Positions 8,455 to 18,152 of a stretch of 27,424 bases of DNA are shown here, one piece after another (position 1 is the first letter of the stretch; every line of letters begins with the position of its first letter). A program made the position numbers and the translations under genes. The DNA lies in the NCBI GenBank assembly GCA_046594975.1, contig JBKJRA010000073.1:1-27424 (forward strand), read 5' to 3'. The notes beneath the pieces are model-generated. The model was not told where the DNA came from and did no database searches. It saw only the letters and a list, made by a program, of their open reading frames with translations. Origin of the DNA: Pyrinomonadaceae bacterium (GTDB lineage: Bacteria > Acidobacteriota > Blastocatellia > Pyrinomonadales > Pyrinomonadaceae).

Positions 8455-10068
8455 ATGGGTCGTTTAGCCCACAAGATTGTCGTCAGAATTATTACCGCTT
8501 ATAATCAGGCATTGAGGATAAGTCCTACAATTTTGTCACAAATATCTAATTACAATTTAAGCATTCTGACCGGTATCAGTTTGGTCACAGCCGATTCTCG
8601 TGGCATTCGTACCGACTGCGGACTGATCCTAGATACTCTTAAAAAAGAGCTTGATGTCATATTTGGATTCGTCGGCATCCTACAAACCGAGACTGATAAA
8701 TTCGACATTATCGCAGCGACGGGCCTCGATGCTGCCGATTTTCGCCGCCTAGAGACACGCGCAGGATCGAGTGCCCTTATGCGTGTTTTTGACCTGCGGG
8801 AATCGATTACGTTGCTTGTAAATGACGAGCCTTCGCTCGATTTTCTTTCTAATCCGGCGATCGTCGGCGAGTTGATTTCCGCGCCAATAATACTTTCGCA
8901 GGCATGTGTTGGGTCGATCTCGCTAGCATTTGATAAGACAAAGTTTAAAGACCGCAGCAATGTCATACATTTGCTTGAGATCGTCGCGGCTATGATCGCA
9001 CAATCCTTACGTGCCGAGCGGCTCGAACGCGAAGAAAGCCGCAAGCTTGCCGAAGAAAACACGCATCTCAAGCAGGAGCTCAAAGAAAAATATGATTTCA
9101 GCCATCTGATCGGTAATTCAAGCCCAATGCGGCAAGTTTACGATCAAGTGACCCAGGTCGCCCGTTCAAATGCCACCATTATGATTCGCGGCGAGAGCGG
9201 CACCGGCAAAGAGCTGATCGCGAACGCTATTCACTACAATAGCCTTCGTTCCAAACGACCTTTTATAAAGTTAAACTGTGCCGCCCTGCCCGAGACACTG
9301 ATCAAATCGGAGTTGTTCGGCTACGAGCAGGGTGCATTTACCGGTGCCGCAAAGCGTAAAAAAGGCCGTTTCGAGATGGCCGAAGGTGGAACAATATTCC
9401 TCGACGAGGTTGGCGACCTGCCTCCGCAAACTCAGGTAAAACTGCTTCGCGTGCTTCAGGAGCGTGAGTTCGAACGCCTCGGCGGTACCGAAACTATTAA
9501 GGTAAACGTCCGCCTCATCACCGCGACGAACAAAGATCTGGAGGCATCGATAATCAATAACTCTTTTCGCGAAGACCTTTTTTACCGTCTCAATGTCTTC
9601 ACTATCTTCTTACCGCCCCTTCGCGAGCGCAAAGCTGACATTCTCCAACTCGCCGAGCATTTCATGAAAAAATACGAGGCGGAGCACGGTAAACGCATCC
9701 TGCGAATATCGACGCCGGCGATCGATATGCTGACGGCGTATCATTATCCGGGCAATGTCCGCGAGCTTGAAAACGCTATCGAACATGCTGTGCTCGTCTG
9801 CGATTCCAATGTAATTCACGGGCATCATCTGCCCCCGACGCTGCAGACCGCTGAGGTGAGCGGTACCGAAACTCGCGTCACGCTCGAATCTGCCGTCGCC
9901 GCTTTTGAACGCGATCTGATCCAGGACGCCTTGAAATCGACACGCGGCAACGTAACTAAAGCTGCAAAAATGCTCGATTCGACGGAACGTATCCTCGGCT
10001 ACAAGATAAAAAAGTACGCAATTGATACAATTCGATTTCGGAAATGGAACGCAAAGAATTTCTCATAA
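8455..10068 (+). CDS. GAF-domain sigma54-dependent Fis-family activator (NifA-like architecture)
   Basis: GESGTGKE Walker A, GAFTGA, FLDEVG Walker B, YPGNVREL, C-terminal HTH. True start may be later (e.g. TTG 8533). Confidence 0.9.
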   Translation: MGRLAHKIVVRIITAYNQALRISPTILSQISNYNLSILTGISLVTADSRGIRTDCGLILDTLKKELDVIFGFVGILQTETDKFDIIAATGLDAADFRRLETRAGSSALMRVFDLRESITLLVNDEPSLDFLSNPAIVGELISAPIILSQACVGSISLAFDKTKFKDRSNVIHLLEIVAAMIAQSLRAERLEREESRKLAEENTHLKQELKEKYDFSHLIGNSSPMRQVYDQVTQVARSNATIMIRGESGTGKELIANAIHYNSLRSKRPFIKLNCAALPETLIKSELFGYEQGAFTGAAKRKKGRFEMAEGGTIFLDEVGDLPPQTQVKLLRVLQEREFERLGGTETIKVNVRLITATNKDLEASIINNSFREDLFYRLNVFTIFLPPLRERKADILQLAEHFMKKYEAEHGKRILRISTPAIDMLTAYHYPGNVRELENAIEHAVLVCDSNVIHGHHLPPTLQTAEVSGTETRVTLESAVAAFERDLIQDALKSTRGNVTKAAKMLDSTERILGYKIKKYAIDTIRFRKWNAKNFS

Positions 10069-12860
10069 AAGATTTGCCCGACCCAGAATCGGCGAGGCGA
10101 TTCCTCGGCCAGCTGGCTGAGGCACATGCGACGCATCACGCTAAGTTGCTCAAAAATGAGAGCCTGCAGTCTGACGTGCTGACCCTCGTCTCGTTCAGCC
10201 CTTTGCTTGCGACGACCTTACTGCAAAATCCGGATTACATCGGCTGGCTCGACCGCAAACGCCTCGATTCGGGTGTTCGCGGCAAAGAAGAATTGCTCGA
10301 ATCCCTCGCCCGTTTTTCGCTGACAAATTCGCAATTGGAGCCGCAGGTACTCTTCGCCAGATTTCGCCGCCGAGAATTATTGCGTATTTACCTCCGCGAC
10401 ATTCGCGGTCTCGCGACGATCGCCGAGATCACCGAAGAGATATCGCACCTCGCCGACGCCATTCTCGAAGCCGCTCTTAAAACCGCCCGCCGCGAGATGG
10501 ACAATCGTTTCGGCTCGCCGCAGGAGACTGACGAAAAAGGCCGTGCGGCGTCTGCGCGTTTCTGCATTGCTGCCCTTGGCAAACTCGGTTCCCGCGAGCT
10601 TAATTATTCGTCGGACATCGACCTGCTTTTTCTATATTCCGACGAAGGCACGACCTCCGGCAGCGGCACTCGCGGTGCGGTGACAAACCGGGAATATTTC
10701 ATCAAACTCGCCGAATACACCGCCAAACTCGTGGCAAGCTCGTCCGGCGAAGGTGCCGCCTACCGCGTCGATCTTCGCCTGCGTCCACACGGCACGCTCG
10801 GTGCTCTGGCATTGTCTGTCAAAGACCTCATCCGCTATCACAAAGTCGAAGCCCGCCCTTGGGAACGTCAGGTTTTGATCCGTTCGCGAGGATGTGCAGG
10901 CGACATAGATCTGTTTCGCGAGTTTTTCTTACAGGTCGAGGATCTTGTCTTTTCGACTACCGAGACCGTCGCGTCCTCGCTTCGCAACGTGCGTCTTTCT
11001 AAACAAAAGATCGATCTTGAGATGATAAACCGGCGTGGTTACGACGTAAAACTTGGCCGCGGCGGCATTCGCGAGATCGAGTTTATTGCTCAGGCTCTAC
11101 AGCTTGCACACGGCGGCCAGGACAAATGGCTTCGTTCGCCGCACACTCTGATCAGCCTCGACCGTCTTGCGGACAGGCGTCTGCTGACCGAAGCCGAGCT
11201 TACAGGTCTCGCTGCCGCGTACGAATTTCTTCGCCGCACGGAGCACGTCCTGCAGATGGAAAACGGTGTGCAAACGCATACGGTCTCAGACGATACTGAA
11301 AAACGCGAAGTCTTGGCGCGAAGGATAGAATTCATCGACGACGGCGATTTCGAACAGAACCTGAAAAAACACACGGACTGTGTTGCGGGAGTTTTCACGC
11401 GGGTGTTTGGAGTTTCGCCTTTAAGCGGCCAGCATGAGGAAGAGCCGACTGAACTTGGAACTCCGAACGCTGAGATCCCCGACCTGCAGAAACGCACGCT
11501 GTCTCACGTGATGGCGTCGATAGAAAAATCCGACGTTGCCTACGCGGCAGACGAAACAAGTGTCGCTGTTCTGACCCGCATCACCGCCGTTTCGCCGCAT
11601 TTTTCGGCGATGCTTGCGGCAAATCCCGACCTCGCCGCAAGTCTTCCCGACCCCGAAGCCGAGTTTGCCGAACCGGATTACGCCGTCGAGATGATGGATG
11701 CGGTCGAATCCACGCGCGATTTCGGCCAGCGTTTATCGGCGATGCGAAAGGCCTGGTCGCATCTTTTGATGGAGATCGTCGTGCGGGATATTTTCGAAAA
11801 GATCACGATCAGCGAAGCCAAACGCCTGCAGACCAAGCTTGCCGAGGCGTCCATCGCCGCCGCTTTGCGGGCCGTTCGCGACGAGCTTGCGCACCGTTAC
11901 CACGACGAAAGCACTCATCTCGACCTCGCGATACTCGCTCTTGGCAAACTCGGCGGCCGCGGGCTCGATTACGACAGCGACCTCGATCTGGTCATCGTCT
12001 ACTACGACCCCAAAGAGCCTCTTACCGACGTCACGCCGGCCGAATTTTACTCGCGTGCGGTCGAGCTTTTCGTCACCGCTCTGTCGTCGATGACCCGCGA
12101 CGGCAATCTCTACCGCGTCGATCTTCGCCTGCGTCCCTTCGGCAGCAAAGGAATGTCCGCGATGTCGATCGATGCATTTCTCGGCTACATGCAGGACACG
12201 GCGGCAATATGGGAAATGCTGGCGTTTGTTAAATTACGTTTCGTCGGCGGTGACCTGAGCATCGGATTTAACGTCGAAAACGAAACCCGCCGCCTGATCC
12301 ACGAACGAGCTGCCGCCGCTGATCCGGCTGAGCTTCGAGCCGAAACCCTACGCGTCCGTCACGCCCTCGAAGAGCAGCGTGCCCGCTCCGCTCGCGGCAA
12401 GGACATCGACATCAAATACGGTTCCGGCGGCCTTCTCGACGTTTATTTCGCCATGCGTTACCTACAACTCCGCTACAACATCCCGGATAGCGACGTTGAA
12501 GAAGAGCGTGAGACTAATAGCCGCTCGACCTTAGCAATGCTCAATCGTCTCCACAAACTTGCGGAAAAGAACGAAGTGGAAAATGGAACTCTCCCTGTCC
12601 CCTTTTCCCCTCTTCCCCTTTTCTCCTCTGCTATCGAGCTATTAACCGAGAGCTACACCTTCCTCGCCGCTCTCGACCACAATCTCCGCCTCACCGTCGG
12701 CCGCACGACCCGCGTTCCCGTCGCCAACGACAACGCCCTAAAGACCATCGCCGCCCGTATGCATCTCGCCAGCCCCGCCGACCTCCTCGAACACCTTACC
12801 ATCCACCGCCTAAACATCCGCTCCGCCTTCGACACGATCCTCGCCGACCCGAAAGCGTAA
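10044..12860 (+). CDS. glnE: Glutamine synthetase adenylyltransferase / adenylyl-removing enzyme
   Basis: Two nucleotidyltransferase modules (GKLGSRELNYSSDIDL; GKLGGRGLDYDSDLDL), each followed by YRVDLRLRP; 938 aa. Confidence 0.9.
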   Translation: MERKEFLIKDLPDPESARRFLGQLAEAHATHHAKLLKNESLQSDVLTLVSFSPLLATTLLQNPDYIGWLDRKRLDSGVRGKEELLESLARFSLTNSQLEPQVLFARFRRRELLRIYLRDIRGLATIAEITEEISHLADAILEAALKTARREMDNRFGSPQETDEKGRAASARFCIAALGKLGSRELNYSSDIDLLFLYSDEGTTSGSGTRGAVTNREYFIKLAEYTAKLVASSSGEGAAYRVDLRLRPHGTLGALALSVKDLIRYHKVEARPWERQVLIRSRGCAGDIDLFREFFLQVEDLVFSTTETVASSLRNVRLSKQKIDLEMINRRGYDVKLGRGGIREIEFIAQALQLAHGGQDKWLRSPHTLISLDRLADRRLLTEAELTGLAAAYEFLRRTEHVLQMENGVQTHTVSDDTEKREVLARRIEFIDDGDFEQNLKKHTDCVAGVFTRVFGVSPLSGQHEEEPTELGTPNAEIPDLQKRTLSHVMASIEKSDVAYAADETSVAVLTRITAVSPHFSAMLAANPDLAASLPDPEAEFAEPDYAVEMMDAVESTRDFGQRLSAMRKAWSHLLMEIVVRDIFEKITISEAKRLQTKLAEASIAAALRAVRDELAHRYHDESTHLDLAILALGKLGGRGLDYDSDLDLVIVYYDPKEPLTDVTPAEFYSRAVELFVTALSSMTRDGNLYRVDLRLRPFGSKGMSAMSIDAFLGYMQDTAAIWEMLAFVKLRFVGGDLSIGFNVENETRRLIHERAAAADPAELRAETLRVRHALEEQRARSARGKDIDIKYGSGGLLDVYFAMRYLQLRYNIPDSDVEEERETNSRSTLAMLNRLHKLAEKNEVENGTLPVPFSPLPLFSSAIELLTESYTFLAALDHNLRLTVGRTTRVPVANDNALKTIAARMHLASPADLLEHLTIHRLNIRSAFDTILADPKA
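11405..11471. repeat. Degenerate heptamer repeat with complementary arm in the GlnE interdomain linker
   Basis: gaacttg gaactcc gaacgct (11451-11471); GTTTGGAGTTTC (11405-11416) can pair with 11457-11468 (12 bp including G-U). Confidence 0.5.
12561..12631. repeat. Pyrimidine-rich octamer tandem repeat x5 with purine-rich arm, in frame in glnE
   Basis: tccctgtc cccttttc ccctcttc cccttttc tcctctgc (12592-12631), preceded by gcggaaaag...ggaaaatgg; encodes LPVPFSPLPLFSSA. Confidence 0.75.
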
Positions 12861-12871
12861 GCTTCCTCTCC

Positions 12872-12905
12872 TGTCAGAACCGGAATCGGCAGCGACAGGG
12901 TTCTT
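12872..12905 (+). repeat. 34-nt palindromic REP-like repeat, copy 1
   Basis: TGTCAGAACCGGAATCGGCAGCGACAGGGTTCTT; 30/34 identical to the reverse complement of 15180-15213; AGAACC/GGTTCT arms. Confidence 0.85.
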
Positions 12906-12978
12906 GCTCTGAAAATCGGTTAATGCTAAAGTTTGCGGTGCGGGAAGCCGTCTTGGACGTAGGAGGTTGGGTTTCGAC

Positions 12979-13254
12979 ATGGCCTCGTCCCGCATCATCC
13001 CAAATGAATATTTTGCACTAGTGCGACAACGTACAGACAGGATTTTACTTCAAGCACAGGCTCAGTCTATGACCTCGCCTCACCCTACCATTGCTCAACG
13101 CGTCGCCACGCATCTTATAGACTACCCGCTCGCCGAACCGAGTGATGCCGCCATCCCGTCCGAGCAACTCCTAAATGATGTGTTAGATCACCTCCGCATG
13201 TTCCATCCCGGAGCTTACGACCACTTTGTCCCTCCAGTTCTACCAGTAGAATAA
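12979..13254 (+). CDS. Hypothetical protein (~91 aa)
   Basis: ORF; AGGAGG at 12961-12966, ATG at 12979; no recognisable motif. Confidence 0.45.
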   Translation: MASSRIIPNEYFALVRQRTDRILLQAQAQSMTSPHPTIAQRVATHLIDYPLAEPSDAAIPSEQLLNDVLDHLRMFHPGAYDHFVPPVLPVE

Positions 13255-13428: not shown

Positions 13429-13653
13429 ATGAAAGACAAGATCGACTTTTTGTTAAAAAGGGTCACGAAGTTTCAGACGCAGACGAAAAACTCGCTTGAT
13501 AGCGAAGCGTTCGCGCTTGTCCGCCGTTCGCTGGAAAGTATAAAGCTCGAAATTTCTCATGGCACCCCAATCGACCCCGCGACTATTGATAGCATAGAGA
13601 CAAGACTCCTGCGACTTGAAAATATCTTTAAAAATCAGAATAAAATGCTCTGA
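13429..13653 (+). CDS. Hypothetical helical protein (74 aa)
   Basis: ATG ORF with amphipathic, helix-like composition; no recognisable motif. Confidence 0.5.
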   Translation: MKDKIDFLLKRVTKFQTQTKNSLDSEAFALVRRSLESIKLEISHGTPIDPATIDSIETRLLRLENIFKNQNKML

Positions 13654-13712
13654 TCAATAAGGTGGAGCGAGGTGATCCTCAACGTCTCCCACACCGTCAA
13701 AGGCCTCGCTCG

Positions 13713-13880
13713 ATGCTCGACGCGACAAGGGCCTTGTATATACTCGACAAACTCGAAGCGATGCGTCCCACGCTTAGCAACGATCCCACCGTCGTTGCAC
13801 AGTTTGAGCAAACTCTCGCCGAATGCCACGAAGCCCTGCGTCTCGACGCCGAGGCTCGCGGCCTTCCAGGAAAGATGTAA
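13713..13880 (+). CDS. Hypothetical helical protein (55 aa; 72 aa if GTG 13662 is used)
   Basis: ORF with C-ending codon bias like real genes nearby. Confidence 0.45.
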   Translation: MLDATRALYILDKLEAMRPTLSNDPTVVAQFEQTLAECHEALRLDAEARGLPGKM

Positions 13881-13921
13881 ATACTGGCTAAAATGCAATC
13901 TCAATTGATCTCTACGACGGA

Positions 13922-14152
13922 GGAAATCGTTTCCACGAAGGGGGTAAACGCTCTGACGAAGCTCGCAAATGCTCTGACGACGGGGGCAAACGCTGTGTGA
14001 AGTCGGGCAACCGTTACGGGGAGACGGGCAACTGCCGCGGAAAGACGGGCAAACGCTGCGTGGAGTCGGGCAACTGCTGCGGAGAGACGGGCAACTGGTG
14101 CGGAGAGACGGGCGAACGCTACGGGGAGACGGGTAAACGGCGCGGGGAAGAG
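13922..14152. repeat. Tandem array of 11 degenerate 21-nt units (consensus about GGCAAMYGCTGCGGRGAGACG)
   Basis: Units start at 13922, 13943, 13964, 13985, 14006, 14027, 14048, 14069, 14090, 14111 and 14132; contiguous, no spacers. Confidence 0.92.
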
Positions 14153-14179
14153 GAAAATGCTGGCGGCGACAAATATCTG

Positions 14180-14208
14180 TTGACGTCAAGGCTCTTTTTG
14201 AATATAGT
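14180..14208 (+). promoter_or_regulatory. sigma70-type promoter with a perfect palindrome over the -35
   Basis: TTGACG-N17-TATAGT; TTGACGTCAA (14180-14189) is a perfect 10-bp palindrome; AGGAGG RBS at 14246-14251. Confidence 0.6.
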
Positions 14209-14261
14209 TGGTATCGTTCCAAAACAAAAGACAAATAATTTTTTTAGGAGGACATTCGAAA

Positions 14262-14957
14262 ATGGCAGATAGAGACTGGTATCCACGCAGCAGGGAGGCT
14301 CTGGCTATTTGGTGGGCGAATTTTACATTGCGGAGGCCGGATTTTGAGGCGAAGTATCCGATACTTGGGACGCTGAAAAACGAACTCAACGCGGCGGGGG
14401 CGTGGATGGATTACTGGGCCTCGGCTATGCATATTTTCAGCGACCTTGGGCAGCAGATGTCCAAATATTTTAATACTATCGCCGGTAATGATAAAAGCGC
14501 CGATCCGCCGCAGCCGATAAAGTGGACGATCCCGCCAGGAATGCCTGCGGAGGTGCCGCCGGGAATCGAAAAGATAATACGCGACGTTCGGCGCGATGTC
14601 GTCGGACAGATCGATTACGCGGTGGCCGACGGCGAAGCGTTGGGATTTGAAACCGTCGGTGCTAAGGCACTGAACCCGGATGTTCTAACCGCTGCTTTCG
14701 AGGTCAAAACGCTCGTCGGGTTTGAACTGCAGATGACCTTTAGAAAGTACGGAATGGACGCGATGCGGTTTGAGTTTCGATACAAAGGCGGCGACTGGCA
14801 GAGCGCCGGAACCCTCATTAACAGCGCCGGCGTGCTCCATATCCTGCCCCAAACACCCGGCCAGGCCGAACAGATCGAACTTCGCGCCGTCTATCTCAAG
14901 GGCAACGATACATTCGGCAACTACTCCGACACAAAAACCGCCCTCATCGCCCCGTAG
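14262..14957 (+). CDS. Hypothetical protein, 231 aa (helical N-terminus, Pro-rich middle, predicted beta-sandwich/Fn3-like C-terminus)
   Basis: Strong RBS, ATG 14262, clean codon usage. The fold assignment is an inference from alternating hydrophobic strands (MRFEFRYK, IELRAVYL, GNYSD). Confidence 0.85.
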   Translation: MADRDWYPRSREALAIWWANFTLRRPDFEAKYPILGTLKNELNAAGAWMDYWASAMHIFSDLGQQMSKYFNTIAGNDKSADPPQPIKWTIPPGMPAEVPPGIEKIIRDVRRDVVGQIDYAVADGEALGFETVGAKALNPDVLTAAFEVKTLVGFELQMTFRKYGMDAMRFEFRYKGGDWQSAGTLINSAGVLHILPQTPGQAEQIELRAVYLKGNDTFGNYSDTKTALIAP

Positions 14958-14967
14958 ATGATTGAAA

Positions 14968-15165
14968 TCAGGCTATGGTCGTTTTTCGACTGTTAATATC
15001 TTCGAACCAGCACCGCGTGCAGAAGCGGTGCTTTTTTCTTTGCGTTAGCGGATAGTCGGCGGACATCGGCAGACGTTCGACGAGCATTTGCTGTTCGAGG
15101 TCGAGTTCGTCCCAATCCTTCATTTTCGGCAAGCCGCACTTTGGGCAGGTGTTTTTGTCTATCAT
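14968..15165 (-). CDS. Small CxxC...CxxC (zinc-ribbon-like) protein
   Basis: CPKCG and CTRCW motifs, 65 aa. Confidence 0.7.
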   Translation of the reverse strand: MIDKNTCPKCGLPKMKDWDELDLEQQMLVERLPMSADYPLTQRKKHRFCTRCWFEDINSRKTTIA

Positions 15166-15179
15166 TGTGCTGAAGATGA

Positions 15180-15213
15180 AAGAACCCAGTCGCTACCGCT
15201 CCCGGTTCTGACA
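15180..15213 (-). repeat. 34-nt palindromic REP-like repeat, copy 2 (inverted relative to copy 1)
   Basis: Minus strand TGTCAGAACCGGGAGCGGTAGCGACTGGGTTCTT; folds as a hairpin with AGAACC/GGTTCT arms and a GC-GGTA-GC tip. Confidence 0.85.
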
Positions 15214-15284: not shown

Positions 15285-18152
15285 ATGAAAACTAGAATAA
15301 TTCTGTTCGCTGCGACTATCTGTATTGTCTTTGCGCAATTTGCGTTTGCCCAGGACCCACTCAATGAGAAATTTGATTTCTACAACCGGGGCGATTACAA
15401 AGCCAATGTACCGCGTCCGCAGAGCATACTGCACTACGACGTGGGCGATTTTCATACGACCTACGCACAGATGGAAAAAGTGATCGAGTCGATCGCCGCC
15501 GCTTCGCCTGACCGTGTGAAGATAATGGACATCGGACTGACGAACGAGCATCGAATGCAGCATTTGATAGCGATCTCTTCGCCCGAGAATATCGCACGGC
15601 TCGACGACATCAAGGCGAATATCGCTAAGCTCACCGATCCGCGTAAAACCTCTGCCGCTGAGGCGAACACTATTGCACAAAACACACCCGCTATTGCGTG
15701 GATGGCCTACACCATTCACGGCAACGAATCAGCGTCGTTTGAGGCGATGATGCAGGTTATGTATCAGCTCGCCGCGTCTAATGAGCCGACAACGCTCGAA
15801 ATTCTTAAAAACACCGTTGTCCTGCTATTACCCGGCGAAAATCCTGACGGACACGAGAGATTTGTTACGTGGTATAACTCTGTCGCAATAGGCGACGCCA
15901 ACCGCTCCGCCCTCGAACACCGCGAGCCTTGGAGCATTTACGGAAGGCTCTCGCACTATCGTTTTGACCTCAACCGCGACACGCTTGCGATGACGCAGAT
16001 AGAAACGCAGCACATGGCAAAGGCGTTTCAGGAATGGAATCCGCAGGTATCGGCTGACCACCACGGACAGCCTTCGCAGTACTTTTTTCCGCCCGACGCA
16101 CTGCCGATCAATCCTAATCTGCCGCAGCCTGCATTTGGCAAATGGAACGAAATGTACGGTCGTGCCAACGCAAAGGCCTTTGACGCGAACAAGTGGGATT
16201 ACTACGTCCGAGACGTGTTTGACGCTTTCTATCCGGGATATTGGGATATGTACCCGTCGATGAACGGCGCCATAGGTATGACGTTCGAAACGGATGGCGG
16301 CGGCACCAAAGGACTGCGATGGACACGCGATGACGGCACGATCGCCACGCTCCGTTCGGCGATAGCCAAGCACTACACGGCATCTATGACGACGATTGAG
16401 ACGACTGCGAGAAATAAGGTCGAGCGTCTCAAGGATTTCTACGATTTCCGTGCGGGCGGCATGGCAGGTTATGCAGCCGGAAAGATGAAACGCGTCGTAA
16501 TATTGCCGCAAAAAGACCCCGTCAAAGCCGCCGAGCTCATCGAGGTGCTCAACCGTTCTAAGATCGAGGTCAAGGTCGCGGACAGTGCGTTCACCTCCGC
16601 GTCCGCCCACACATACGGCACGGCGAATGCATCCGTCGAGAGCAAAACATTCCCTGCCGGTTCGTATATCGTCGATCTAAACCAGCCGCAGCGGATATTG
16701 ATCAAATCGATCCTCGAACCCGACACACCGCAGGATAAGGCGTTTGTCGATGACAATATGGGCCGATTCAAACGCAACCAGATGAAAGGTGCCGGGCAGT
16801 CGAAAGAAGATTATGGTTTTTATGACATAACTGCTTGGTCGATGCCGCTTGCATTTGGGCTCGATGCGTATTGGACGGAGGACGGCGGTAATGCGTCGGG
16901 CACACTTGCGACCGACGAGACCATCGCCGCAGCAAAACGCGGTACGTATCCGGGTCGCGCCCAGATCGCGTACATTATTCCGTACGTTACCGATACAGCA
17001 AGTGCGATGGTTATGAAGATGCTCCAGGATGGTTTTCGCGTCGCCGTAGCCACAAAAACGCTCAACGCCGCTGGTCGCAACTGGCCGCGCGGCACATTCG
17101 TGGTCCGCGTCACGCGAAACACCGAAGCCCTTCATAACGAGGTCGCAAAACTCGCAATAGATATGGGCATCAATGTCACCGCTGTCAACACCGGATTTGC
17201 CGACGAAGGCGACACCGGCGTCGGCGGCCAGAATGTTATATCGCTGCAAGCCCCAAAGATCGCGATCGTCGCCGACGAAGCGGTCGATCAAACATCTTAC
17301 GGCTCGATCTGGTGGACGCTCGACCGCTACGGCATTAAATTTACGCCAATGACCATACGCTCGATCAAAAGCGGCGGCCTGAAAGATTACAACGTGTTGA
17401 TAATGCCCGACGGTTCGGCGAGCCAGTATATGTCGCTATTTGGCACAGGAGGAGTCTCAAGCCTGAAAGAATCGATATCGGACGGCGGAACGCTTGTCAC
17501 CTCACGCGGAGCGTCCGTTTTTGCGACGCTAAAAGATGTAGGGCTGACAACCTCCAAGCTCGTCGGCAGCGTCGAAGATGAGGAAAAAGGCAAGAAAACG
17601 GATGCTGAGGAAGAGAAAAAACCAACGCCGTCGCCAACGCCTGCGACTTCTGTAAGGCGTGCGGATAATAAAAATATACCGGTCGAGCCAAATCCAAACC
17701 CGTCAAGCGAAGAGCTAAAGTCCGACAAAGCCGATGGCGTCTCACCGAGCCTGCCGCCGATAGCATCGCCTTCGGCGGATGCTAACAAGGTTCCGGTCGC
17801 CCTGCCAGGTTCGATAATGCGTGCAACGGTCGATCGTACAACCTACTTAACCTACGGCCTCGAACAGGACGAACTGCCGGTTTTGCTCGCAAGCGGTTTC
17901 TTCTTCCGCTATTCAAAGGAAGGCTCGAACGCCATCGTCTTTGACGCGAAACCTCGGAGACCTCTAACGCTGTCGGGCTTTGTATGGGCAGGCAATACCG
18001 AAAGATTACTGTCCGGCACGGCTTACGTTATAGACGAACCGCGCGGTTCAGGCCACACGATCCTCTTTGCCGAGGAACCATTTTTTCGCGGCATCTTTAG
18101 ATCGAACACACGGCTGTTCTTTAATTCGATACTATTCAACGGAGTGTTCTAA
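15285..18152 (+). CDS. Secreted M14-family zinc carboxypeptidase-like protein
   Basis: Signal peptide; IHGNE, NPDG, DLNRD and DHHG motifs; long C-terminal region. Confidence 0.85.
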   Translation: MKTRIILFAATICIVFAQFAFAQDPLNEKFDFYNRGDYKANVPRPQSILHYDVGDFHTTYAQMEKVIESIAAASPDRVKIMDIGLTNEHRMQHLIAISSPENIARLDDIKANIAKLTDPRKTSAAEANTIAQNTPAIAWMAYTIHGNESASFEAMMQVMYQLAASNEPTTLEILKNTVVLLLPGENPDGHERFVTWYNSVAIGDANRSALEHREPWSIYGRLSHYRFDLNRDTLAMTQIETQHMAKAFQEWNPQVSADHHGQPSQYFFPPDALPINPNLPQPAFGKWNEMYGRANAKAFDANKWDYYVRDVFDAFYPGYWDMYPSMNGAIGMTFETDGGGTKGLRWTRDDGTIATLRSAIAKHYTASMTTIETTARNKVERLKDFYDFRAGGMAGYAAGKMKRVVILPQKDPVKAAELIEVLNRSKIEVKVADSAFTSASAHTYGTANASVESKTFPAGSYIVDLNQPQRILIKSILEPDTPQDKAFVDDNMGRFKRNQMKGAGQSKEDYGFYDITAWSMPLAFGLDAYWTEDGGNASGTLATDETIAAAKRGTYPGRAQIAYIIPYVTDTASAMVMKMLQDGFRVAVATKTLNAAGRNWPRGTFVVRVTRNTEALHNEVAKLAIDMGINVTAVNTGFADEGDTGVGGQNVISLQAPKIAIVADEAVDQTSYGSIWWTLDRYGIKFTPMTIRSIKSGGLKDYNVLIMPDGSASQYMSLFGTGGVSSLKESISDGGTLVTSRGASVFATLKDVGLTTSKLVGSVEDEEKGKKTDAEEEKKPTPSPTPATSVRRADNKNIPVEPNPNPSSEELKSDKADGVSPSLPPIASPSADANKVPVALPGSIMRATVDRTTYLTYGLEQDELPVLLASGFFFRYSKEGSNAIVFDAKPRRPLTLSGFVWAGNTERLLSGTAYVIDEPRGSGHTILFAEEPFFRGIFRSNTRLFFNSILFNGVF

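Follow-up and report, generated by a model that had tools for sequence, protein, structure and literature searches.

The 22-bp iterons of plasmids R6K and pPS10, and the R1 parC site bound by ParR, typify direct repeats of some 20-22 bp, all phased to one face of the helix and clustered beside or across the promoter of an adjacent gene. Such iteron and partition sites have a defined sequence, occupy plasmid origins or centromeres, and are read by the DNA-binding product of the adjacent gene. Curved DNA upstream of promoters reportedly modulates transcription or attracts nucleoid proteins, as a 1994 review by Perez-Martin, Rojo and de Lorenzo is said to describe; in classical promoter curvature, A-tracts are phased about every 10-11 bp. 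Promoter contingency VNTRs vary in copy number between close strains, altering the -35/-10 spacing or the reading frame.

The closest described relatives of the repeats considered here are an "enigmatic group" of bacterial tandem repeats, constant in size and variable in sequence, reported by Subirana and Messeguer (PMC8161180). Units measure 20-21 or 52 nt, and 20-23 nt across many bacterial groups according to the J Bacteriol 2020 work as summarised there (PMC8161180). The repeats are generally non-coding, species-specific and without known function (PMC8161180; IJMS 2021), and those of one species share a short characteristic motif (PMC8161180). Two roles have been proposed: a protein may polymerise along the repeat DNA, or the repeats may be transcribed to give small RNAs; the 52-nt repeats of Bacillus coagulans are reported to be transcribed (PMC8161180, PMC8625621). 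In the available text of PMC8161180, promoters, upstream position and any link to a gene family are absent, and neither "promoter" nor "upstream" occurs. Full-text searching brought up no relevant literature on 21-bp repeats, or on tandem repeats at large, in Acidobacteria or Blastocatellia.

The array described here is a member of this class. It lies in the window, whose 27,424 nucleotides are the full length of contig C240 in a Pyrinomonadaceae assembly of 2.28 Mb and 70% completeness (Table 1). A preliminary examination, the sequence-only reading, had noticed a 21-nt tandem array that stops 27 nt before the -35 element of a 231-aa gene. Tandem Repeats Finder (TRF) and unit register confirm the array, and place about 28 nt between its last clear unit and the TTGACG-N17-TATAGT site. 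The unit consensus is GGGCAAACGCTGCGGGGAGAC; a GAC-GGGCAA block is nearly invariant across units, and the remaining 11 unit positions are variable. Autocorrelation gives an identity of 0.71 at lag 21, versus about 0.3 at other lags, and TRF detects a higher-order period of 63 nt with 85% match. As in the Subirana and Messeguer class, the unit is 21 nt long, present in at least four copies (eight well-kept, about twelve in total) and non-coding, and several arrays in the same genome share unit length with unrelated sequence. One difference is apparent: 73% of one gene family has an upstream array here, a link that the class as published does not have. A second is possible, in that no motif is common to the arrays, which were compared between genomes; the published motif is a property of one species.

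Table 1. Features of the window around the 21-nt array (coordinates from the first letter of the contig)
Feature	Position	Strand	Basis or remark
glnE	10044-12860		
Left copy of 34-nt inverted pair I1	12872-12905		88% complementary (repeat search)
Second open minus frame, 199 aa, TTG start; judged no gene	13635-14234	-	ORF listing
Open frame of the sequence-only reading, 94 codons; judged no gene	13901-14185	-	without start or Shine-Dalgarno; without synonymous excess
Tandem array, twelve 21-nt units	13921-14172	none	TRF, units in register; repeat family D1
Array core, 8 well-kept copies	13984-14151		TRF; units at edges degenerate
Sigma-70-type promoter-like site TTGACG-N17-TATAGT	14180-14208	+	10/12 consensus match
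RBS AGGAGG, 10 nt before ATG	14246-14251	+	sequence
231-aa gene, large uncharacterised family	14262-14957	+	helical N-terminal domain, Fn3-like C-terminal beta-sandwich
Terminator-like hairpin after 231-aa gene	15009-15032	+	sequence scan
Right copy of 34-nt inverted pair I1	15180-15213		repeat search
M14-peptidase gene	15285-18152		

The sequence-only reading had asked whether arrays also accompany homologues of the 231-aa gene, and the answer is strongly positive. Seventy homologous loci from related Acidobacteriota were oriented by the gene, and TRF was applied to the upstream DNA with a cut-off of at least 60 nt. An upstream tandem array is present at 51 loci (73%); no array was detectable by TRF at the remaining 19. 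At every locus save one, the array ends 39-700 nt ahead of the start codon; at the exception the distance is 1317 nt. Autocorrelation is strongest at a period of 21 nt in 48 of the 51 arrays, whose GC content ranges from 19 to 67%. The unit consensus sequences are unrelated, 42 units falling into 40 groups. As a baseline, the window's own genome has 2268 open reading frames of 150 aa or more, of which only 14 (0.6%) have an array within 700 nt upstream. Arrays are thus enriched about 100-fold upstream of this gene family.

More distant or incomplete loci add some detail. Four distant family members come from metagenome contigs: one of these contigs begins within a 21-nt array, a second shows degenerate periodicity at 21/42, and the remaining two show neither. 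Both other family copies in the window's assembly touch contig ends (C130:4995-5854 and C175:1-185). The last 42 nt of contig C130 resemble two 21-nt units, which sit just upstream of a TTGACA-N17-TATATT promoter; this contig end suggests that such arrays break short-read assemblies. At loci L016, L020 and L021 (genomes G106, G098 and G086), array and gene are about 650-1300 nt apart. Between them are 7-nt repeats (GAGTGAC) and a 5' leader-like segment, the latter conserved and found also at L026 and L061. Locus L073 (G275:C28, about 10650-11200) carries a compound array of more than 500 nt, in which at least three 21-nt unit types abut, including CTCCGCCAAGTGGTCAGCGGG and CGCCGGCAAGCACTCGCTGGA. 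It lies near a contig end, and the assembled side has no family gene within 1.5 kb.

The sequence-only reading had instead seen in the array an apparently selected, amphipathic heptad frame on the minus strand, with no ATG, GTG or TTG codon and with many unit-to-unit changes that are silent. As far as its letters go, that account is accurate: between 14185 and the TGA at 13903-13901 the frame runs for 94 codons without a stop, its translation is exactly the one quoted, and it carries two recurring hydrophobic columns, with V/F and L at fixed positions in every heptad. It has no usable start, as had been said; a single GTG does occur, at codon 84, and would leave 11 codons. No Shine-Dalgarno sequence accompanies the ATA/ATT codons near the 5' end of the frame. 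A few of the unit changes are silent as well, without amounting to an excess. Ten units differ from their consensus by 46 changes in all; each was scored in all six frames, and the counts were set against 2000 simulations in which the same base changes were placed at random positions carrying the same base. In the minus frame 15 of the 46 are synonymous and 31 non-synonymous, against a null expectation of 13.6 (P=0.36). None of the six frames is outstanding (P=0.38 for the maximum over frames), and the highest synonymous count belongs to another frame, one that contains stops.

Open frames of this kind come readily from the repetition itself. Of the six frames, three run open through the window array, as expected for a repeated 21-mer that has no stop: the frame just described, the 199-aa minus frame (13635-14234) and a plus frame at about 13890-14272, which reads GETGNxx heptads. 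The amphipathic heptad is the consensus unit LPAAFAR translated over and over, and the second codon positions of the minus frame are C/T-rich because the plus strand is G/A-rich. When the window unit is dinucleotide-shuffled, 70% of the products have at least one of six frames that is free of stops and places hydrophobic residues at i and i+3/4; for random 21-mers the figure is 85%. The 199-aa minus frame has no Pfam match, and no conserved counterpart in 69 homologous loci save one low-complexity match.

Nor is any frame or strand regularly open in the 51 homologous arrays: every antisense frame is closed in 11, every sense frame in 14, and all six frames contain stops in 5. Counts of open frames equal those of dinucleotide-shuffled consensus units (sense, 92 versus 92.2; antisense, 101 versus 98.7). 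An apparent excess of open antisense frames over a column-permutation null (67 versus 49.5) was discarded as a composition artefact, since it is gone under the dinucleotide-preserving null. Column variability is without a period-3 component (mean z 0.00; P<0.05 in none of 38 arrays); within a unit, the variable columns tend to lie side by side (mean z 0.56; P<0.05 in 6 of 38). For A/T content, the period-3 harmonic if anything falls short of the random level. Autocorrelation across the arrays reveals no lag-3, no clear lag-7 and no lag-10/11 signal. There is a faint bump at lags 7-8 and 13-14 (a 7 x 3 heptamer substructure of the 21-mers), and lag 42 stands above lag 21, which indicates that alternating unit subtypes are common. 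Within genes, 21-nt repeats likewise have units of seven codons and frames that stay open; those, however, sit in annotated genes conserved across species, whereas the window array has no start, no frame conservation, no period-3 signal and no synonymous excess. The array is non-coding, and the hidden peptide is a chance by-product. With the selected frame falls the alternative of a decaying gene, which fails on the same evidence.

The arrays are also indifferent to the direction of the gene. Related units stand in opposite orientation to homologous genes in two pairs of loci, L004/L009 (17 of 21 positions matching) and L005/L006 (19 of 21), where the background maximum is 13-14 of 21. These loci belong to different species (G151, G090, G290 and G259), and their genes are 50-59% identical at the protein level; only the arrays and the gene bodies can be aligned between them, not the other intergenic DNA. 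Such inversion argues against a strand-specific role tied to the gene, be it as peptide or as leader RNA. The array is a double-strand, orientation-independent DNA element.

Within the units, little points to a reader. No 4- or 5-mer is common to 38 units of different genomes beyond shuffle expectation, and by eye the arrays of the window's own genome share no short sequence. Dyad symmetry is marginally enriched across units; the window unit itself has no dyad with an arm beyond 3 bp. Neither A-tract or 10.5-nt compositional phasing nor A/T clustering was found in the units. With no common k-mer, weak dyads and no phasing, there is no pointer to one binding protein or to selected curvature. 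As for RNA, the window array folds no better than shuffles on either strand (z +0.45 and +1.31), and has no Rfam match.

A strong AGGAG-type ribosome-binding site precedes nearly all 70 homologues, no sigma-54 -24/-12 match lies between array and gene in the window, and the terminator-like hairpin makes the 231-aa gene look monocistronic. A slightly longer segment that includes this hairpin (15005-15036) is found with different flanks in several metagenome contigs, as a dispersed palindromic element. The family comprises 53 close homologues of about 230 aa, which bear the NCBI labels of "Chloracidobacterium sp." MAGs, and 1038 clusters at 50% identity in a profile search (E<=1e-3). It is present in 32 of 301 genomes of the class, almost all of them of the window's genus, with up to nine copies per genome. 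The 231-aa protein has no match in Pfam, NCBIfam, PHROGs or PADLOC. An AF2 model (pLDDT 84) gives Fn3 matches at E of about 4e-4, no fold match for the helical N-terminal domain, which is the most conserved part of the family, and no match to a helix-turn-helix (HTH), ribbon-helix-helix (RHH) or other known DNA-binding fold. The protein is acidic, with a pI of 5.3; the family median is 4.97, and 83% of members lie below pI 8. From its charge and modelled fold, the protein is unlikely to bind DNA, which weighs against the earlier suggestion that the neighbouring protein binds the array. The likeness to iterons and parC, which lies in the length of the direct repeats (about 20-22 bp), their helical phasing and their place beside a promoter, is accordingly a partial one: unlike those sites, the array is chromosomal (between glnE and the M14-peptidase gene) and free in both sequence and orientation, and the adjacent product, if the model is right, lacks a match to the DNA-binding folds (wHTH, RHH or HTH) of Rep, ParR and ParB.

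Comparison of gene neighbourhoods indicates that the array and the gene arrived together. The 2.4-kb interval between glnE and the M14-peptidase gene holds orphan small ORFs, the array, the 231-aa gene and a small divergent zinc-ribbon gene, and the 34-nt inverted pair encloses a 2.3-kb block that comprises the array, the 231-aa gene and the zinc-ribbon gene. In the relative G305 (L080) about 120 nt separate glnE from the M14 gene, and in six other relatives only the zinc-ribbon gene lies between them. The short interval in these relatives implies that most of the block with array and gene is an insertion. Searches of 69 homologous loci and of the rest of the genome turned up no conserved counterpart of the small ORFs at 12967-13254, 13429-13653 and 13662-13880 or, the low-complexity match mentioned above aside, of the 199-aa minus frame; none of these has a match in Pfam, NCBIfam or PHROGs. 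For lack of conserved counterparts, the small upstream ORFs and the 199-aa minus frame were dropped as candidate partners of the array. At 13659-13711 lies an element of about 52 nt whose inverted arms are GAGCGAGG...CCTCGCTC; copies of it are present in metagenome contigs from soil and sediment, and their many different flanks mark it as a dispersed REP-like repeat. The ORF at 13662-13880 starts inside this repeat and is probably not a gene.

Over short evolutionary distances the arrays are both preserved and replaced. Three species with proteins 93-94% identical keep the unit core (TTGCGCAAATGAATT...) and 10-12 copies, where flanking non-coding DNA is 72-78% identical. Short-read soil-metagenome contigs from two runs carry the window array again, differing at three bases that all fall within a single unit. 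A relative whose gene is about 91% identical has 116 other letters in place of 244 nt of the array, as pieced together from short-read contigs, none of which spans the array by itself. Homogenisation alone can keep units alike without selection.

Nor is the genomic distribution wholly that of a promoter element. The 2.28-Mb assembly contains 17 arrays with periods that are multiples of 21; the non-coding ones have unrelated units, and at least two (on C98 and C324) lie in Gly-rich coding frames. Well-kept arrays of 20-21-nt units, again unrelated in sequence, occur between convergent gene ends (C14:10327-10564, C100:1109-1302, C309:890-1083 and C322:4054-4144), in contexts that include the region after purD and that between secG-like and argB-like genes. 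The class is therefore not purely promoter-linked or limited to the 231-aa family. Genome-wide, array periods pile up at multiples of 7 (31 arrays of period 7, 15 of 14, 16 of 21, 6 of 42 and 2 of 63); the 21-mers themselves have almost no internal 7-nt periodicity.

Why 21? Geometry offers one answer, explored here in a rough model with two approximate sets of dinucleotide step angles. For the window array, the predicted net axis deflection is 9.6 degrees per unit, versus 2.5 +/- 1.4 for shuffles, in one set, and 24.9 versus 6.2 +/- 2.8 in the other; 34 and 32 of 40 real arrays, respectively, exceed their own shuffles in this rough calculation. In modelled 168-nt arrays of random units, deflection peaks at period 21 in both sets, because no whole number of base pairs below 21 completes whole helical turns. 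Lesser predicted peaks fall at periods 10-11 and 31-32, and in the Bolshoy-type set period 32 is almost as high (87 versus 89 degrees at 21). Periods 11 and 31-32 are not seen as arrays, though predicted to be curved. Summed step twists per unit, compared with 720 degrees, give an outcome that shifts with the parameter set. The peak at 21 would thus follow from geometry, and the model is no proof that curvature is selected. The array resembles promoter-upstream curved DNA in its place just before the -35 element, the critical helical phasing and the strong net curvature predicted by this rough model; it differs from classical curved DNA in having no A-tract or 10.5-nt phasing, so that any curvature would come from repetition of an arbitrary 21-mer.

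These observations suggest a general model, to which we assign a probability of roughly 55%: a non-coding 21-bp array and the 231-aa gene form a module, in which the array serves as a helically phased upstream promoter element. The descriptive part alone, a non-coding, period-defined, gene-linked DNA array, is very nearly secure. Identical units spaced every two helical turns would present the small bend or the protein-contact surface of each unit on the same face of the DNA. The array would then be a coherently curved stretch, or a one-sided docking stretch, just upstream of the -35 element, and could tune transcription of the presumably strongly expressed downstream gene. Any such promoter effect would be mediated by intrinsic curvature or by a bound protein. 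Slippage, unequal exchange and conversion would grow, shrink and homogenise the arrays in 21-bp steps, and so keep the phase. A promoter contingency VNTR differs in this respect, for the present array is wholly upstream of the -35 element and steps of 21 bp preserve helical phase. Linkage, period, orientation and the coding tests all support the third alternative of the sequence-only reading, a DNA-level array in which 21 bp make two helical turns. Several observations count against a promoter element, among them a distance from array to gene that ranges from 39 to more than 600 nt, the 19 of 70 loci and two of four distant ones without a detectable array, the arrays between convergent genes, and the want of a common motif or phasing in the units.

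The serious rival is a satellite, neutral or selfish, that persists by slippage and unequal exchange and has no role for the gene, the 21-nt period reflecting a mutational or structural bias. This is the expected behaviour of units that look random, share no motif or phasing, have dyads barely above chance, adopt either orientation, turn over as fast as in the 91% identical relative and lie between convergent genes too; it would also suit a published class without known function (PMC8161180). What such a satellite would leave unexplained is the enrichment at one gene family (73% versus 0.6%), the hold of period 21 in 48 of 51 arrays despite their range of base composition, the unit core and copy number preserved in three species, the related units beside paralogues only 50-59% identical, and the movement of array with gene in an inserted block. 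On balance the satellite seems unlikely, if well worth keeping in view. A role in RNA has less to recommend it. Twenty-one nucleotides falls within the size range of small guide RNAs, a speculative point in its favour. The array would be transcribed, and the repeat RNA or small RNAs derived from it would act as regulator or sponge, much as considered for the transcribed 52-nt repeats of Bacillus coagulans (Subirana and Messeguer; PMC8161180, PMC8625621). The lack of folding beyond that of shuffles, and of an Rfam match, speaks against this, as do the unconserved orientation to the gene, the absence of a consistent strand asymmetry (GC skew is positive in 31 of 51 arrays), and the fact that the sole promoter-like site facing the array from upstream is a weak 9/12 match (13717-13744). 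We regard an RNA role as quite improbable.

More improbable still is a private binding platform of iteron or centromere type, on which the 231-aa protein of each paralogue recognises its own array. Co-inheritance of gene and array, a unit sequence particular to each paralogue, and the clustering of variable and conserved columns within units would all be expected of it. An acidic protein, modelled as a helical bundle with an Fn3-like sandwich and no DNA-binding fold, is a poor candidate for the task; its most conserved domain, the N-terminal one, cannot read unrelated sequences, and arrays of the same class lie far from any family gene. Least credible of all is the start-less minus frame as a selected, membrane-active peptide of amphipathic heptad repeats. 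The 94 open codons, the fixed V/F and L columns and the few silent differences gave that idea its appeal. Against it stand synonymous changes at the null level, two further frames equally open over the array, the lack of start codon and Shine-Dalgarno sequence, a pattern that 70-85% of random units reproduce, homologous arrays that keep no frame open and show no period-3 signal, and inversion of arrays relative to the gene.

The promoter-element model can be extended, tentatively. The arrays may be the cis half of an undescribed, widespread module for gene control or genome organisation, with the helical and Fn3-like family of about 231 aa (roughly 1000 clusters) as the other half; selection would act on period rather than sequence, and the module would move as a unit and work in either orientation.

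Together, these results yield a clean negative: the open heptad frames that such arrays inevitably show are no genes. They also provide a rule for one genus of soil Acidobacteriota, about 100-fold enrichment before one orphan family, whatever the sequence or orientation of the units. This rule turns the descriptive puzzle of fixed-length repeats into a testable question, where the prior catalogue gave neither a function nor a genomic rule (PMC8161180). If true, the module reading would supply the first gene-linked, experimentally testable function for constant-size repeats.
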